Virus record (IMG/VR): IMGVR_UViG_2529292734_000008
Coordinates: 1 to 7,538 of that record
Source: a virus
Lineage: Duplodnaviria > Heunggongvirae > Uroviricota > Caudoviricetes
Length of the DNA: 7,538 nt
Direction: 5' to 3' (one strand)
The translations under genes and the position numbers were made by a program. Below are positions 2,813 to 7,538 of this stretch, piece by piece. The notes below the pieces were generated by a model, which was not told where the DNA came from, made no database searches, and was given only the letters and a program-made list of their open reading frames with translations. The number at the start of each line of letters is the position of its first letter. The first letter of the stretch is position 1.

Positions 2813-3306
2813 TAAGCCCCCACGTAATTCCCTGAGAGATACCACTCTTCACCTGATGCAGCCCGCTTACTGCTTTTCCGTAAACACAGTTCACGACGTG
2901 CCAGAAAATTGTTTCGTTCTGGCTGGGAGTGGCTTTCACGGAATGCCGCCATCCACACCGTTGCAGCACGACGGTATAAGCCCCTGGACTCCAGTTCTTC
3001 CGCCTGGCGGGTCAGGCACAAAATCACCCGCGGGTCGTTAGTGCCGACATAGAAATTGCGCACAGGTCTGGTTTCACGAACTGGTTGTGGTTCCGGATCC
3101 TGCGCTCTCTCAGTCAGGCGCGGGAAATGTCTGTGTGTATCTCCTTCACAACGGTGAGCCACACGCCCACTCTGACGTAACTTGCTTGCTGACTGCAGAA
3201 CGCGCTGCCGTGAGTAACCTGCAAAAGCATCCGCAATGTCTCCGGAAGTACAGCCCGGATGGGCTTCAATGAATTTCTGAACGTCATTCAAAAGACTCAT
3301 GCTCAC
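2812..3306 (-). CDS. Phage regulatory protein, winged-helix-like N-terminus with PerC-like C-terminal region (putative)
   Basis: 164-aa ORF translationally coupled at both ends (ATGA with the replication gene stop; TAATG with the MTase start). The C-terminal segment LESRGLYRRAATVWMAAF resembles the conserved core I recall for PerC/Pch-family activators; this assignment is from memory and is tentative. Confidence 0.55.
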   Translation of the reverse strand: MSMSLLNDVQKFIEAHPGCTSGDIADAFAGYSRQRVLQSASKLRQSGRVAHRCEGDTHRHFPRLTERAQDPEPQPVRETRPVRNFYVGTNDPRVILCLTRQAEELESRGLYRRAATVWMAAFRESHSQPERNNFLARRELCLRKSSKRAASGEEWYLSGNYVGA

Positions 3307-4978: not shown

Positions 4979-5185
4979 CTAATCGCCATCGGCACGAAGG
5001 CGGTTAAATAATGCGTTCTCTGTTACATCCAGCCAGTCAGCAGCTTCAGCGTAACCCCCCGGCAACGCTGCGATAGTTTTTCTGACAGCTTTCACGTACC
5101 ACTCAGGCTGTTTGTCTACTTTCCAGTGATGCTTACCCACGGTTAGCCTCATCGTTCTGTGGTTTCTGTTAATCGATTTATCCAT
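4979..5185 (-). CDS. CII-like / YdaT-like HTH regulatory protein (putative), ending at an amber codon
   Basis: HTH-like segment GYAEAADWLDVTENALFNRLR at the C-terminus, in the position of lambda cII (immediately downstream of cro). The start is uncertain: ATG 5185 overlaps the cro stop, with alternatives at 5197 and 5152; none has a strong SD. The ORF ends at TAG 4981-4979. Confidence 0.45.
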   Translation of the reverse strand: MDKSINRNHRTMRLTVGKHHWKVDKQPEWYVKAVRKTIAALPGGYAEAADWLDVTENALFNRLRADGD

Positions 5186-5378
5186 TAGATTTTTCATAAA
5201 GCTCAGGTTTAAATGGCAACCGTCCGCAAGTTCTATATGCAGCTTCTGCTGCACGTCCTTTTGGAATTAACTGGCCCGGACGGTTTCGCCACTGATAAAC
5301 GGCTTCAGTTGTTATGCCGAAAAAAGCAGCAACTTTCTCAATACTGCCGAAGTAGCTTTCGATATCGTCAGTTGTCAT
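5178..5378 (-). CDS. Cro-like transcriptional regulator (small HTH protein)
   Basis: 66-aa ORF MTTDDIESYFGSIEKVAAFFGITTEAVYQWRNRPGQLIPKGRAAEAAYRTCGRLPF with an HTH motif (VAAFFGITTEAVYQWR). SD GGAGGG lies just upstream of ATG 5378. It is transcribed divergently from the repressor gene. Confidence 0.7.
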   Translation of the reverse strand: MTTDDIESYFGSIEKVAAFFGITTEAVYQWRNRPGQLIPKGRAAEAAYRTCGRLPFKPELYEKSNG

Positions 5379-5388
5379 ACGCCCTCCA

Positions 5389-5455
5389 AACTAAGTTTTA
5401 TTAGATGCTAATTACAAATCTATCTTTGGTCAATAAAAACTAAGATTACTTAGTA
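5389..5455. promoter_or_regulatory. Divergent immunity control region (OR-like): two 14-bp inverted-repeat operator candidates and a PR-like promoter for cro
   Basis: CTAAGTTTTATTAG (5391-5404) and CTAAGATTACTTAG (5440-5453; perfect 5-bp arms CTAAG/CTTAG). On the minus strand, -35 TTGACC (5433-5428), a 17-bp spacer and -10 TAGCAT (5410-5405) precede the cro ATG. The first operator overlaps the -10/+1 region. Confidence 0.55.
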
Positions 5456-5475: not shown

Positions 5476-5985
5476 ATGGAAACGGTTGGTCAGCGTATAA
5501 AAGCTCTGAGAAGAGTTACCAGAACGTCCCAGAAAGAATTGGGTAAATTTTGTGGAGTAAGCGACGTTGCTGTGGGGTACTGGGAGAAAGACATCAATAC
5601 CCCTGGTGGGGAGGCACTTTCGAAATTAGCGAAGTTCTTCAATACGTCAATAGATTACATTCTTTATGGTGCTGAGTTTGAAGGCAAACTCGTCACAAAC
5701 ATGCGCAGAGTTCCTGTAATATCGTGGGTTCAGGCTGGGCAGTTTACTGAGTGCAGGGCAGCAGAAGTGTTTAGTGAAGTGGACAAGTGGGTAGATACAT
5801 CATTAAAGATTGGTGATAACTCATTTGCATTAGAGGTTAAAGGTGACTCCATGACTAACCCTAATGGCCTCCCAACAATACCAGAAGGCGCAACAGTGAT
5901 TGTAGATCCAGATGCAGAACCTCGTCATGGAAAAATAGTCATCGCTCGACTTGATGGAACAAACGAAGCTACAGTAAAAAATTAG
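5476..5985 (+). CDS. CI-type prophage repressor (XRE HTH + LexA-like S24 peptidase domain), truncated by a frameshift; remaining C-terminal codons continue in another frame to 6101
   Basis: N-terminal HTH (QKELGKFCGVSDVAVGYWEKD) and S24 catalytic Ser motif GDSM. The ORF ends ...ARLDGTNEATVKN*. The adjacent frame encodes KKLVIDGPQKFLVPLNPRYPNIPINGNCLIIGVVKGVQYEL* (to TAA 6099-6101), which matches the lambda CI C-terminus pattern [35 protein letters not shown]. The break is in the A6 run 5976-5981. Confidence 0.85.
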   Translation: METVGQRIKALRRVTRTSQKELGKFCGVSDVAVGYWEKDINTPGGEALSKLAKFFNTSIDYILYGAEFEGKLVTNMRRVPVISWVQAGQFTECRAAEVFSEVDKWVDTSLKIGDNSFALEVKGDSMTNPNGLPTIPEGATVIVDPDAEPRHGKIVIARLDGTNEATVKN

Positions 5986-6115
5986 TCATCGATGGCCCTC
6001 AAAAGTTTTTAGTGCCATTAAATCCTCGGTATCCCAACATCCCTATCAATGGTAATTGCCTTATCATTGGTGTAGTCAAAGGAGTTCAATACGAACTCTA
6101 AGACCTCTCTTCTCT

Positions 6116-6183
6116 AACTAAGGCACCGAACTAAGAAAAGTTTGGTGTTTTCTCTTGCCATAATAACTAAGTTAAGTTAGATT
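6116..6183 (+). promoter_or_regulatory. OL/PL-like element: repeated AACTAAG half-sites, a 14-bp operator-like site and a sigma70-like promoter pointing rightward
   Basis: AACTAAG at 6116-6122, 6129-6135 and 6165-6171. CTAAGTTAAGTTAG at 6167-6180 matches the OR motif. -35 TTGCCA (6155-6160), 17-bp spacer, -10 TAGATT (6178-6183). Confidence 0.45.
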
Positions 6184-6261
6184 TTATGTCAAAGATAACG
6201 AACAGGCAGGACGCCCACGAAGTAGCCGCCTGGGGCATATGAAGTCCAGGATGATTCGTTA

Positions 6262-6290
6262 GCAACAAAAAAGCGCCCTACAGGACGCTT
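6262..6290 (-). terminator. Intrinsic terminator-like hairpin with U-tract, minus-strand sense
   Basis: Minus-strand RNA would read AAGCGUCC-UGUA-GGGCGCUU followed by UUUUUUGUUG (stem 6271-6290, A-run 6267-6272 on plus). On the plus strand the same hairpin has a C-A mismatch and no downstream U-tract. Confidence 0.5.
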
Positions 6291-6291
6291 A

Positions 6292-6303
6292 GCTCTTTAA
6301 CAA
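6292..6303 (+). promoter_or_regulatory. boxA-like antitermination element (12/12 match to the rrn-type boxA core GCTCTTTAACAA)
   Basis: GCTCTTTAACAA at 6292-6303, immediately after a hairpin and about 45 nt upstream of the ATG of the first plus-strand gene downstream of the PL-like promoter. A weak AU-rich hairpin CAAGTAACTGATAACTTG follows at 6319-6336. Confidence 0.45.
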
Positions 6304-6348
6304 TCTGGTCCCCATCAACAAGTAACTGATAACTTGAGGAGATGTGAA

Positions 6349-6555
6349 ATGCACAAAACAGAACCCAAAATCGTCGCGCCTGGCTACACAGATGAGGAAA
6401 TTTATGAGTGGATGACAAAGAAGCTGGCAGCTATAAACCAGCTTCGTGAAGTGCTGTCTTATCGACAGGAAACAATAGACTCCTTAAAAAAACTGGATCA
6501 GGAAATCACGGTTTTATCACAGGATGTTACTTTAGATATTGTGCAGACAAATTAG
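6349..6555 (+). CDS. Hypothetical small protein (68 aa), first gene of the rightward PL-like transcript; AT-rich accessory gene
   Basis: ATG at 6349 preceded by a strong SD GAGGAG (6336-6341). The track ORF begins at an earlier in-frame ATG at 6334. The translation MHKTEPKIVAPGYTDEEIYEWMTKKLAAINQLREVLSYRQETIDSLKKLDQEITVLSQDVTLDIVQTN is predicted helical and acidic. No family recognised. Confidence 0.6.
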   Translation: MHKTEPKIVAPGYTDEEIYEWMTKKLAAINQLREVLSYRQETIDSLKKLDQEITVLSQDVTLDIVQTN

Positions 6556-6961
6556 GATCCCATTCATTTTCGTCAAAATCATCAAAGTGATGAATTTGTG
6601 ATCTCCAGTCTCGATAATCTAAAAATTTCTGGGCGGTTACGCTTATTTTATCAAGTGTGAGTTCATCCTGAATTGAAAGAAGAAGTTCATCAAATTTCAT
6701 CTCATTAATCTGTTTTGGCATCCAGTGATGCTTCATCAGAATAAGGTGAACCAGAGCCTTTTTCCCATTCAACTGATTATAGGGAGTGCCGAATTTCTTC
6801 CGGTGCTCATGTAAGACAAGGTCCAAAAGAGTAAGTAATGTTGCCCTTGATTCAACTTTGCTTATTTCGACTGATGACACTACCCCACTGATTTCAATGC
6901 CCCGATACTTTCCAACATTTTCACAGTGGGATTTGTACAGCGTATAGATATTACCGGACAT
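6527..6961 (-). CDS. Hypothetical protein (144 aa), moron-like accessory gene transcribed convergently to the PL-like operon
   Basis: ORF with SD AAGGA (revcomp of plus 6962-6975) upstream of ATG 6961. The region looks AT-rich compared with the flanking phage backbone. Its 3' end overlaps the 68-aa gene by 29 bp. No family recognised. Confidence 0.7.
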   Translation of the reverse strand: MSGNIYTLYKSHCENVGKYRGIEISGVVSSVEISKVESRATLLTLLDLVLHEHRKKFGTPYNQLNGKKALVHLILMKHHWMPKQINEMKFDELLLSIQDELTLDKISVTAQKFLDYRDWRSQIHHFDDFDENEWDPNLSAQYLK

Positions 6962-6976
6962 TTCTTTTCCTTTTGC

Positions 6977-7028
6977 GTTGTTGGGGATAACCAGATTAAC
7001 CGAATCCTTGTTGTTGGGGAATAACCAG
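6977..7028. repeat. Two 18-19 bp direct repeats GTTGTTGGGGA(A)TAACCAG separated by about 15 bp, in the upstream region of the 144-aa gene
   Basis: Copy 1 at 6977-6994 and copy 2 at 7010-7028, nearly identical, located 16-67 bp upstream of the minus-strand ATG at 6961. Confidence 0.5.
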
Positions 7029-7245
7029 GTCCACCTCGCCTGATGTGGCTAAAAGCAGGCACATAACAGCTAAGTATTTTCAACCAGAGAGAATCCTTAG
7101 CGTTGTGGTGAATGCGGCTCAGCGCACGCGGGTTAAGGTTGAGGCTGACAGTCGACCTTCTGTGGATACCCACCCGCCTGGTGTGCAACCTTCGCCAGGC
7201 ACCGGGAGGCACCCGGCACCACAACTTTATGCTGTGTGTAGTCTT

Positions 7246-7292
7246 GGCGGTACCAGCTTGTACCCTTGCTTCCGGCTGGTACCGTCCTTTTT
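7246..7292 (+). terminator. Rho-independent terminator-like hairpin (10-bp perfect stem CGGTACCAGC/GCTGGTACCG, 17-nt loop, T5 tract)
   Basis: Stem 7248-7257 pairs with 7275-7284, followed by TTTTT at 7288-7292 on the plus strand. Confidence 0.6.
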
Positions 7293-7297
7293 ACAAA

Positions 7298-7379
7298 ACA
7301 GAGAAGAGCATCACCGGACGACGGGCTCATAACCCAATCCATCCGGGCGGCAGTCACCGCAGGTGTTCTTCTCTGTTTT
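7298..7379 (+). other. Long-range helix (about 15 bp including G-U pairs) enclosing about 49 nt, followed by a UUU run; structured leader element
   Basis: 7298-7312 pairs with 7362-7376 (ACAGAGAAGAGCATC / GGTGTTCTTCTCTGT). It lies about 50 nt upstream of the next gene's ATG. Confidence 0.35.
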
Positions 7380-7429
7380 GTGGAGAAACTAACCGACCTT
7401 GCAGGGTCGATATGATGAGGAGCAGCAAA

Positions 7430-7538
7430 ATGGCTAGCGAACGCAGTACTGATGTGCAGGCATTTATCGGGGAGCTGGACGGCGGCGTATTTGAAACCAA
7501 AATCGGCGCAGTTCTCAGTGAAGTCGCTTCCGGTGTGA
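7430..7538 (+). CDS. Hypothetical protein, 5' partial view (continues beyond window end)
   Basis: ATG 7430 with SD GAGGAG (7417-7422) 8 nt upstream. Translation MASERSTDVQAFIGELDGGVFETKIGAVLSEVASGV... is open to the window end. No family recognised. Confidence 0.55.
   Translation, partial: MASERSTDVQAFIGELDGGVFETKIGAVLSEVASGV

Follow-up and report, generated by a model that had tools for sequence, protein, structure and literature searches.

The window, a stretch of 7,538 nucleotides of viral DNA, carries a modular structured RNA on its + strand between positions 7031 and 7411, within the early-left (PL-side) operon of a lambdoid phage of the SfIV/SfV/e14 type (Table 1). The gene order of cro (- strand) and cI (+ strand) is confirmed by Pfam and by phage annotations, and in all 10 of the annotated phages and prophages examined the element is located between the repressor gene cI and the first early-left gene; in e14, it is found directly upstream of xis-int. 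The candidate PL promoter overlaps one copy of an operator-like repeat, D3 (5389-5406 versus 6165-6182, 83% identical), which has a second copy between cI and cro, and it is the likely source of the transcripts that run into the element. The promoter scan found no sigma-70 promoter adjoining the element on either strand. Consequently, the RNA may be made only once PL is released from repression, and an independent promoter for a small RNA could not be supported. A scan for tRNA and tmRNA gave no match. The window's cI gene is frameshifted, and the prophage may consequently be defective. Downstream of the element, the 120-aa product read from ATG 7430 matches phrog_204 over its full length, and the annotations of ST64B, LLS and mEp460 begin the homologous gene at the equivalent position. 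Compared with related phages, similarity breaks at positions 6977, 7031, 7244 and ~7395. Of 5426 complete E. coli genomes, 1823 (about one third) carry at least 80% of the element, and the element is also carried by the functional phages Kati, SfIV, SfV, ST64B and LLS.

Table 1. Features of the element and its surroundings, in window coordinates
Feature	Position	Strand	Basis or remarks
Candidate PL promoter, TTGCCA-17-TAGATT	6155..6183	+	Promoter scan; overlaps operator-like repeat
BoxA-like site GCTCTTTAACAA, rrn-type	6292-6303	+	Sequence; context only
Conserved block X	7031..7066	+	Near-identical in e14, Cronobacter phiES15 and several viral contigs
Predicted 12-bp hairpin, immediately 5' of P1	7069..7101	+	MFE structure
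STnc100-type 5' domain, five hairpins closed by the 9-bp helix P1	7102..7225	+	Rfam, fold, covariation
Helix P1	7102-7110 with 7217-7225	+	Isolated fold, covariation
Near-invariant CCGGGAGGCACCCGG in the 5' domain	7202-7216	+	Sequence
Single-stranded seed TGCTGTGTGTAGTCTT	7230..7245	+	Identical to RprA nt 62-77
Predicted intrinsic terminator, 13-bp stem, 15-nt loop, U5	7246..7292	+	Fold, inverted repeat, homologues
Module B, 20-bp stem closing three small hairpins	7293..7381	+	Fold, covariation
Conserved GGAGAAAC, then leader hairpin 7394-7409 just before the ribosome-binding site	7382..7411	+	Fold, homologues
Shine-Dalgarno GAGGAG, 7 nt before ATG 7430	7417-7422	+	Sequence
yfdP-family gene, real start ATG 7430, SD included	7417..7538	+	Sequence, homologue annotations

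The region from 7031 to 7431 folds more stably than its shuffles, with a z-score of -7.5 on the + strand versus -3.4 on the - strand. The initial annotation had called the stretch hairpin-dense and non-coding, and both the + strand fold and the lack of a coding signal in its ORFs bear this out. The perfect 10-bp stem with a T5 tract that it placed at 7248-7292 is present: the arms 7248-7257 and 7275-7284 are a perfect inverted repeat, which RNAfold extends to 13 pairs (7246-7258 with 7274-7286), followed by TTTTT at 7288-7292 (z = -3.6, 1 of 200 shuffles as stable). The terminator scan missed this hairpin solely on account of its loop, which at 15-17 nt is longer than the 3-8 nt that the scan allows. 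The 15-bp helix formed by 7298-7312 and 7362-7376 is likewise found, two G-U pairs included, and is part of a longer, uninterrupted 20-bp stem (7293-7312 with 7362-7381); the fold of 7293-7381 has a z-score of -8.26, and 0 of 200 shuffles are as stable.

The second of these structures, module B, is maintained by compensatory change. In the 18-sequence alignment A1, 95.4% of its cells are paired, compared with 40-55% when the partners are slid, and eight pairs have changed on both sides; its covariation score is 0.186 versus 0.094, and 0 of 500 shuffles reach it. A U-G pair is kept in 16 of the 18 sequences. Module B has no match in Rfam. Its 3' U-run is not conserved, reading TTGTGT in LLS/Klebsiella-type copies, and so module B is unlikely to be a terminator. 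Consequently, of the two tandem tL-type terminators that had been proposed here, the first hairpin stands as a plausible intrinsic terminator, whereas the second structure is a covarying set of several hairpins. By analogy with DicF processing, the 20-bp stem of module B is a plausible site for RNase III. Between module B and the ribosome-binding site, the leader hairpin (z = -2.5) has stems that differ between phages, while the hairpin itself is kept with TGCAG in its loop.

The first hairpin is predicted to provide the 3' end of a small RNA together with its Hfq-binding module. Of 83 distinct modules that contain the seed, 77 have a GC-rich hairpin and T-run directly after it, and these hairpins take 63 different sequences; between phages, the stem sequences are swapped while the hairpin and T-run are kept. 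G-U pairs account for 77 of the 917 pairs in these stems. Both the G-U pairs and the T-runs are consistent with the + strand alone. The hairpin, an upstream UCUU and a U5 tail are present, and the RNA may bind Hfq. The U-tail has only five residues, which is short for strong Hfq binding.

Upstream of the seed, the element contains a structured domain that the initial annotation lacked, as it did the RprA-identical block described below. A search of Rfam, which had been suggested as a check, gave no match at gathering thresholds; using E-value thresholds, STnc100 (RF02076) aligns to 7072-7295 over its whole model (1-206 of 206) with 43.4 bits and E = 9.6e-8, below its gathering score of 47 bits. 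We file the 5' domain as a divergent relative of STnc100, and not as a member of the family, because the match is significant yet below the curated threshold. Five homologous loci have sub-threshold matches to the same model (29-41 bits). Folded in isolation, the domain reproduces the exact architecture (z = -2.85). Covariance in homologues had also been proposed as a check, and P1 and module B both covary, with the terminator hairpin and T-run kept. Among 73 distinct pairs of P1 arms, one position is GC in 40, AT in 23 and GT in 7, and another is TA in 25, CG in 21 and TG in 10; 272 of 365 cells are paired, compared with 233 +/- 6.6 in shuffles.

The likeness to STnc100 extends over the whole plan of ~200 nt: the closing helix UGGUG/CACCA, about five internal hairpins, the near-invariant CACCGGGAGGCACCCGGCACCA motif (here at 7200-7221), a single-stranded tail, a terminator and carriage by prophages. 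The differences are that the first hairpin of the domain is shifted in the window (two non-canonical pairs in the alignment) and that the tail is unrelated. The settings also differ: the canonical copies described to date are located downstream of stx2B in the late region (PMC12370729, PMC12711010), and the STnc100 relative PasD lies near Q (bioRxiv 10.64898/2026.05.13.724894), a late-region location downstream of stx or Q and near lysis genes, whereas the element and ten relatives occupy the early-left operon. Identity with PasB was rejected, as PasB is located inside an operon of structural genes. RF02076 overlaps EcOnc27/sRNA103 of EHEC.

Two features precede P1. Homologues do not share the sequence of the 7069-7101 hairpin, whose location corresponds to that of an RNase III cut in the DicF precursor (bioRxiv 10.1101/2023.04.14.536235). 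Block X, which in some phages directly precedes the seed with no 5' domain in between, has no supported structure in a single-sequence fold (z = +0.23). An H-type pseudoknot drawn there by eye, with one apparent compensatory change, was set aside as unsupported by the same z-score.

The seed is the link to a host regulator. Positions 7230-7245 are identical in 16 of 16 nucleotides to the RprA core AUUGCUGUGUGUAGUCUUUGCC (RprA sequence from PMC5606850 and PMC7311995, and the Rfam RprA consensus), and the block adjoins the terminator. Among relatives, the RprA-identical blocks are 14-26 nt long, with the longer ones in LLS (24-26 nt). In homologues found by BLAST the seed is conserved while its flanks diverge, with one or two changes in the seed block of 3 of 8 copies; its invariance across viral contigs is partly by construction, as these contigs were retrieved using the seed as a pattern. 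The RprA model (RF00034, gathering score 70 bits) has no match up to E = 10 within 6100-7538, compared with 118.5 bits for K-12 rprA. As in the window, RprA has its 16-nt invariant core directly 5' of the terminator, and the RNA predicted to be processed from the window resembles RprA60-105. This core block covers anti-site Ib, which RprA uses on csgD and ydaM/dgcM (PMC3465796). In contrast, the window lacks the 5' half of RprA (the rpoS-activating nt ~33-62) and csgD anti-site II; RprA is a core-genome, Rcs-regulated RNA at the ydiK-ydiL locus, whereas the window's copy is phage-borne, has another terminator and lacks an RcsB-dependent promoter. It is speculative, and was not adopted, that RprA arose as a deletion derivative of an STnc100-type element: GCAUGGAAAUCCCCUG resembles GCAUGGUGAAUCCCCCUG, but the STnc100 model has no match at the rprA locus up to E = 10.

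We calculated target pairing for the seed only, since duplex predictions with the full-length RNA were uninformative. Against csgD mRNA at -97..-85, the seed has 13 contiguous predicted pairs (ΔG = -22.4 kcal/mol), a value that 2 of 1000 shuffles reach; the predicted duplex with the dgcM start region is weak and is reached by 4.3% of shuffles. The predicted csgD pairing falls on site Ib, which has been validated experimentally for RprA, and an RprA60-105 species has been reported (PMC3465796). In the main texts of openly accessible papers, we found no earlier description of a phage-borne RprA copy; in full texts, the phage small-RNA sequences retrieved only RprA itself, a microarray probe and a K-12 extracellular-RNA read.

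A characterized RNA occupies the same layout in the Qin prophage of K-12: dicF is preceded by a homologous 5' domain, and another STnc100-like domain (34.4 bits) separates it from dicB, whereas in the window it is module B that follows the terminator. The PL-like dicBp transcript gives rise to DicF in two forms, of 190 nt (RNase III) and 53 nt (RNase E) (bioRxiv 10.1101/2023.04.14.536235). At both loci a PL-like operon follows a cI-like repressor, and in it a structured 5' domain leads into a short single-stranded seed and then a terminator of similar sequence, UUGGCGGUAxCAG...; according to synteny and alignment, the window has the DicF layout, namely a 3' portion of a structured precursor that ends at an intrinsic terminator, within a PL-like operon under repressor control. 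We use DicF biogenesis as the working model for the window's RNA. The window's RNA is not itself DicF: the Rfam model (RF00039) scores 19.4 bits against a required 48 (E = 0.27; 28.5 bits for the e14 copy), and the seed is UGCUGUGUGUAGUCUU and not the ftsZ-complementary UUUCUGGUGA. Because the seed differs, targeting of ftsZ and manX is not expected. Some viral copies combine a DicF-type hairpin with an RprA-type seed.

Given the early-left location, the absence of coding constraint, the covarying helices, the seed and terminator module and the identity with the RprA core, we consider it probable that the stretch is a + strand small-RNA cassette of lambdoid phages, built on the STnc100/DicF scaffold. 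The initial annotation had offered a prophage small RNA ending at 7292 as its alternative, and the near-threshold STnc100 match, the DicF-like terminator and the conserved seed preceding swapped terminator stems now favor it. According to the proposed mechanism, transcripts from PL (or from another promoter) would form the 5' domain structure, and most of them would end at the 7292 terminator. RNase III would trim the precursor to an STnc100-sized species of ~200 nt, as it does for Qin DicF, and RNase E would cut the A/U linker at ~7226-7229, freeing a ~64-nt RNA that would correspond to RprA60-105, a short form of RprA that occurs naturally. This product would bind Hfq and pair through its seed with RprA targets, for example the csgD and dgcM mRNAs, so that upon induction or infection the phage may lower curli and biofilm functions by hijacking the host's biofilm and stress control. 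Read-through would transcribe module B, whose 20-bp stem would likely serve as an RNase III site that splits the small RNA from the yfdP...xis/int mRNA. The maturation steps are drawn from homology to DicF and from the 5' end of a K-12 e14 read (PMC4398507). That read is an abundant 35-nt RNA of E. coli K-12 (PMC4398507), and in the e14 copy of the element (MG1655 ~1201195-1201390, minus strand) it corresponds exactly to the seed together with the terminator's 5' half; it is printed as '+st' (PMC4398507), which would make it antisense to the proposed small RNA and counts against it.

The structures may instead act purely in cis, as a leader in which the first hairpin and module B gate expression of yfdP...xis/int from PL, boxA-dependent antitermination overcomes them and no trans-acting RNA is made. 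The element's position inside the early-left operon, upstream of delayed-early genes and in e14 directly upstream of xis-int, fits such a leader, as do the strong terminator, the 20-bp stem and the rrn-type boxA. The lambda N-leader with tL1 (nutL) offers the precedent, as an early-left leader with an upstream boxA, an intrinsic terminator and a long stem suited to RNase III. The boxA-like GCTCTTTAACAA that the initial annotation noted is indeed present. Its main reading, tandem terminators under nut/boxA antitermination, was partly right, but this site is ~750-1000 nt upstream of the structures and has no identified boxB or N: reading the sequence by eye, we saw no boxB hairpin 3' of it, no N-like protein was identified, and the 68-aa ORF that follows it (phrog_1744) lacks a match in Pfam and is not rich in Arg. 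The hairpin at 6271-6290 that precedes the site is terminator-like on the minus strand according to the scan. A put-type antiterminator like that of HK022 was considered because these phages lack an obvious N. Such put RNAs have two stems in ~70 nt, with one copy directly after PL and another after PR; the element fits putL poorly, as it is ~850 nt downstream of the candidate PL (PMC9378689). Unlike the lambda leader, the window's structures are a conserved small-RNA scaffold that also occurs outside the early operon. A purely cis-acting role also leaves unexplained why a 16-nt RprA-identical block is kept beside terminators of unrelated sequence and why Qin has the DicF small RNA on the same scaffold, and the U-run of module B is not conserved. 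Overall, we judge it unlikely that the element acts in cis alone; regulation in cis and a small RNA are not mutually exclusive.

Other short RNAs of lambdoid prophages, StxS and AgvB/AsxR, resemble the proposed cassette in their early termination and RNase E processing, and differ from it in their loci (PR'-tR' and a late moron site) and unrelated sequences. StxS uses the same rpoS site as host small RNAs (PMC7547250). AgvB and AsxR are prophage anti-sRNAs whose family is conserved in the 3' part and varies in the 5' seeds (PMC4104026); they antagonize host small RNAs, whereas the window's RNA would imitate one. The converse arrangement, a minus-strand RNA complementary to the RprA seed that would act as a sponge for host RprA, like AgvB/AsxR, would belong to this established class (PMC4104026) and would agree with the K-12 e14 read, printed as the MG1655 + strand and antisense to the PL direction (PMC4398507), and with the better-than-shuffled fold of the minus strand. 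However, T-runs follow the hairpin on the + strand only, the G-U pairs of the terminators (77 of 917) and the U-G pair of module B (16 of 18) become A-C mismatches on the minus strand, no promoter-like site was found on that strand upstream of the K-12 read, and the homologous DicF and STnc100 are + strand RNAs. A minus-strand anti-sRNA is consequently improbable.

Lambdoid phages are highly mosaic, and the element could be a decaying, functionless remnant in which host rprA DNA and phage STnc100/DicF DNA were joined by illegitimate recombination, as the four breakpoints and the cI frameshift might suggest. We consider this very improbable, because P1, module B and the terminators carry compensatory changes, the element persists in functional phages and one third of complete E. 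coli genomes, and the breakpoints match the module boundaries, as expected when working modules are exchanged.

A protein product is scarcely credible, whether YmfH in e14 or a YfdP lengthened at its N terminus by 106 residues from 7112: the reading frame that starts at ATG 7112 continues without a stop into yfdP, the extension is annotated in Kati and SfIV, ORFs are also placed over the stretch in SfV and in RefSeq E. coli records (ymfH among them) and ymfH overexpression was a hit in a retron-trigger screen (bioRxiv 10.1101/2020.06.22.160242), but RNA from the ymfH clone could equally explain that result, and the ORFs (ymfH in K-12 e14 and the yfdP extension) show no coding constraint, with substitutions spread evenly over codon positions (13/11/11 and 22/26/26), homologues with frame-breaking indels of 1, 2 and 20 nt, an Arg/Cys/Pro-rich predicted peptide, a strong SD before ATG 7430, the start whose equivalent is annotated in ST64B, LLS and mEp460, no ORF annotated over the ST64B copy and an e14 ymfH frame that ends ahead of xisE and does not continue into the next gene.

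If the small RNA is made and active, it would be a widespread phage-borne mimic of RprA, present in K-12 e14, in Shigella serotype-converting phages and in Salmonella ST64B, and it would tie prophage induction to repression of the curli and biofilm genes csgD and dgcM. The poorly understood STnc100 family would gain a function and a model of biogenesis, with DicF as its characterized member, and several genes annotated as hypothetical proteins, namely ymfH, SfV orf32 and the longer versions of yfdP, would give way to an RNA gene. Small RNAs would also have a further way to evolve, in which phages and the host core genome trade seeds while the scaffold stays conserved.

We extend this more tentatively, with somewhat more doubt than belief, to the proposal that the STnc100 scaffold of lambdoid phages is an exchangeable platform for expression and processing, onto which recombination installs seeds, some of them copied from small RNAs of the host core genome. 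Three different alleles are found at this one early-left locus: a seed of the RprA type in this window, e14, SfIV, ST64B and LLS; a RybB-type allele, with the first 11 nt of RybB, in mEp460 and Stx2 phages; and DicF in Qin. If such a platform exists, induced or infecting phages would take over envelope-stress and biofilm regulons by imitating host regulators, and K-12 would carry an unrecognized example, mis-annotated as the protein YmfH. Compared with 17 E. coli small RNAs, the scaffold tails have matches at chance level beyond RprA, McaS, RybB and DicF, with the RprA and RybB counts inflated by the pattern searches used for retrieval. McaS shares an 11-mer with RprA.

We find that the element, a structured stretch at 7031–7411 on the plus strand, occupies the early-left position of a lambdoid phage, is constrained at the RNA level, is laid out as scaffold, seed and terminator, and carries a seed identical to part of the host small RNA (sRNA) RprA. 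The window corresponds to the immunity region of a lambdoid phage of the SfIV/SfV/e14 type, and its segment 6900–7538 matches Escherichia phage Kati with 100% identity. In 10 of 10 annotated relatives the element sits on the PL strand, with the repressor gene on one side and the first early-left gene on the other, and 1823 of the 5426 complete E. coli genomes carry at least 80% of it. Here, the gene-free stretch measures 470 nt, between a 144-aa gene and a gene of the yfdP family that truly starts at ATG 7430, with GAGGAG ahead. Compared with Kati, the cI gene lacks one A from an A-run at 5975, and this 1-nt deletion causes a frameshift, leaving a repressor of 169 aa (208 aa in Kati) with a cut S24 peptidase domain (profile positions 1–80 of 116). 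Either the missing A marks a prophage that is defective, or it stems from a sequencing error; the window's prophage may be defective or derepressed.

Features of the immunity region and of the element, in window coordinates and orientation
Feature	Position	Strand	Remark
cro	5178–5378	-	
cI	5476–5985	+	
Candidate PL, rightward	6155–6183	+	promoter-like site plus operator-like repeats
boxA-like GCTCTTTAACAA	6292–6303	+	downstream of candidate PL
144-aa gene, phrog_5286	6527–6961	-	AT-rich; function unknown
Block X, CCACCTCGCCTGATGTGGCTAAAAGCAGGCACA	7031–7066	+	conserved
5′ domain	7102–7225	+	isolated fold: P1 closing five hairpins
Seed block	7230–7245	+	single-stranded; invariant
Terminator	7246–7292	+	hairpin plus T-run kept; stem sequence wholly different between phages
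Module B	7293–7381	+	18-sequence alignment
Leader hairpin	7394–7409	+	variable stem, TGCAG in loop

An upstream boxA, proposed in the initial annotation, is borne out by the boxA-like GCTCTTTAACAA, which follows a hairpin ~100 nt 3′ of the candidate PL. At 6271–6303, both the sequence and the hairpin-then-boxA order resemble the boxA of rrn operons. By inspection of the sequence, the boxA-like site has no visible boxB hairpin on its 3′ side, and no N-like gene was found. The phage may use host rrn-type antitermination factors. The site is followed by a 68-aa ORF and then by the convergent 144-aa gene. Just upstream of that gene, on the minus strand, are two copies of a direct repeat, GTTGTTGGGGA(A)TAACCAG (6977–6997 and 7010–7030), which may be a regulator-binding site of the inserted gene; one viral contig has a similar motif. 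No promoter for the element itself was identified.

The element had been described as containing two tandem terminator-like structures, and both structures are real. The perfect inverted repeat 7248–7257/7275–7284 with its T5 is present, within a stem of 13 pairs (7246–7258 with 7274–7286; T5 at 7288–7292; fold z-score −3.6). The proposed 15-bp helix also exists, as the inner portion of an unbroken 20-bp stem (7293–7312/7362–7381) enclosing three small hairpins, but this module B (z-score −8.3; 0 of 200 shuffles fold equally well) probably does not act as a terminator, given that phages have not kept its U-run. Over 7031–7431, the z-score against shuffles is −7.5 on the plus strand and −3.4 on the minus strand. 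Similarity between phages breaks at 6977, 7031, 7244 and ~7395, which are module borders. Block X is near-identical across E. coli, e14 and Cronobacter phage copies, and in some viral contigs it directly adjoins the 5′ side of an RprA-type seed; a pseudoknot can be drawn for it, to which single-sequence folding lends no support.

At Rfam gathering thresholds, nothing in the window matches. An E-value-threshold scan aligns STnc100 (RF02076) end to end over 7072–7295 with a sub-threshold 43.4 bits (threshold 47; E = 9.6e-8), and DicF weakly to the terminator, also under threshold, with 19.4 bits. Sub-threshold STnc100 matches recur in the e14, ST64B, 118970_sal3 and phiES15 copies, and the e14 terminator scores 28.5 bits against the DicF model. 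STnc100, a prophage sRNA with no function assigned to it in the literature, has been reported downstream of stx2B, where it overlaps the Hfq-bound EcOnc27, and is related to PasD (PMC12370729, PMC12711010, bioRxiv 10.64898/2026.05.13.724894). In the K-12 prophage Qin (L011), the 340 nt that precede dicF, including 2740–2882, share homology with the 5′ domain in its F1055-type version, and the dicF–dicB spacer (2933–3142) has a full-length STnc100 match (34.4 bits, E = 1e-5). By these homologies DicF, like the window's seed and terminator, ends a cassette of this kind at the corresponding place in a PL-like operon, downstream of a structured 5′ domain, and the DicF locus comprises two STnc100-type scaffolds. 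Separately, the PR side of ST64B (L004 1409–1597, minus in locus orientation) carries a C4 antisense RNA (79.7 bits) beside IsrK (64.3 bits), both above the Rfam threshold and unrelated to the element.

The seed TGCTGTGTGTAGTCTT matches the invariant core of RprA at every position, ...AACGAAUUGCUGUGUGUAGUCUUUGCCC... (PMC5606850, PMC7311995; Rfam consensus), and in phage LLS 24–26 nt are identical, extending into the terminator. Viral contigs hold the seed block at no fewer than 120 loci in ~110 different contexts, a set in which its invariance follows by construction, the seed having been used for retrieval (ascertainment bias). Among homologues retrieved by BLAST, the seed is intact in 5 of 8 and has one or two changes in 3, and the adjoining stems diverge. 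Compensatory mutations have demonstrated pairing of RprA nt 60–97 with csgD site I and of nt 45–75 with ydaM/dgcM, and a natural short form, RprA60–105, exists (PMC3465796). The seed is predicted to form 13 contiguous pairs with csgD −97 to −85, the validated site Ib, in a duplex of −22.4 kcal/mol that 2 of 1000 shuffled seeds reach; a duplex predicted across the dgcM start codon is weaker (−17.4, reached by 4.3% of shuffles). In contrast to RprA, the element has no rpoS-activating region.

Other phages carry another block in the same layout. Over the equivalent of window 7100–7292, mEp460 (L133 1340–1550) and Stx2a_1447 (L134 1340–1550) keep P1, the window-type terminator and module B around AGCCACUGCUUUGG, which includes the first 11 nt, the seed, of the host sRNA RybB. 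This 11-mer match, taken alone, is only suggestive; in viral contigs the block follows three different 5′ domains, always with one and the same terminator. In one scaffold-family member (viral contigs L167 and L177), the tail after the STnc100-type scaffold has AAUGAUGAUAGC before the terminator, complementary to nt 1–12 of the host sRNA MicF; chance alone would give ~0.5 such 12-mers in this comparison. The STnc100/PasD scaffold family, DicF and RprA are already known, as are a phage sRNA acting on the target sites of host sRNAs, StxS (PMC7547250), and families that combine a conserved 3′ part with differing seeds, AgvB and AsxR (PMC4104026). In the main texts of open-access papers, we came across no account of a phage sRNA with an RprA seed or of module B, and no statement of the STnc100–DicF relationship, including the two-scaffold DicF locus; searching full texts for the sequences yielded nothing beyond RprA itself, a probe and a K-12 read.

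The dicBp polycistron gives rise to two forms of DicF: one of 190 nt, which depends on RNase III for its 5′ end, and one of 53 nt, which depends on RNase E (bioRxiv 10.1101/2023.04.14.536235). By analogy, and as the likeliest course for the element, PL transcripts would fold the 5′ domain and stop at 7292, RNase III would yield a ~200-nt, STnc100-sized species, and an RNase E cut in the A/U linker 7226–7229 would free a ~64-nt RNA that carries the seed at the 5′ end and that Hfq would help to pair with RprA targets. The element's U-tail is short. The 20-bp stem of module B is a plausible RNase III site that could detach the sRNA from read-through mRNA. A purely cis-acting leader, comprising a terminator and a processing site under boxA-dependent antitermination, is compatible with the element's position, but it leaves the conserved seed and the DicF homology unexplained.

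The K-12 read offers an experimental hint of such an RNA: it is a 35-mer, one of the two e14-derived small RNAs that are most abundant in K-12 cells and culture supernatant (PMC4398507). Its sequence coincides exactly with part of the e14 copy, starting at the A that precedes UGCUG and reaching the terminator loop, and its end corresponds to the start of RprA60–105. The paper prints it as '+st', however, which would be the antisense strand (PMC4398507). Only this strand label points to a minus-strand anti-RprA RNA; T-runs, G–U pairs and the lack of a promoter oppose it. The hairpin-plus-T-run form is found in 77 of 83 distinct modules, built from 63 different hairpins, with G–U pairs making up 77 of 917 terminator pairs. 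A U–G pair in module B, retained in 16 of 18 sequences, fits the plus strand only.

Copies from E. coli, Shigella, Salmonella, Klebsiella and Cronobacter phages were aligned, and the covariance check suggested in the initial annotation reveals covariation in P1 and in module B. P1 (9 bp, 7102–7110 with 7217–7225) covaries at the two positions adjacent to an invariant GGTG/CACC core (GC40/AT23/GT7 and TA25/CG21/TG10); across 73 distinct arm pairs from scaffold-containing viral contigs, 272 of 365 cells are paired, versus 233 ± 6.6 in shuffles. In the alignment of module B, 95.4% of cells are paired, versus 40–55% with partners slid; eight pairs have two-sided changes, and the covariation score is 0.186 versus 0.094, with 0 of 500 shuffles reaching 0.186. 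These compensatory changes contradict a decayed remnant.

A protein-coding stretch is likewise contradicted. Annotated ORFs cover it, starting at ATG 7112 in Kati and in SfIV and named ymfH in K-12 e14, but substitutions fall evenly on codon positions 1/2/3 (13/11/11 versus e14, 22/26/26 versus ST64B), indels against these two copies are 1, 2 and 20 nt long, and the ST64B copy has no annotated ORF across the element, all of which supports the earlier view that the ORFs are implausible.

The first downstream gene has a hairpin just ahead of its ribosome-binding site in the window (7394–7409), in ST64B (L004) and in L007, L008, L009, L041 and L058. The stems of these hairpins are unrelated, yet all have TGCAG in or beside the loop, which hints at an element recognised by a protein or used in translational control.
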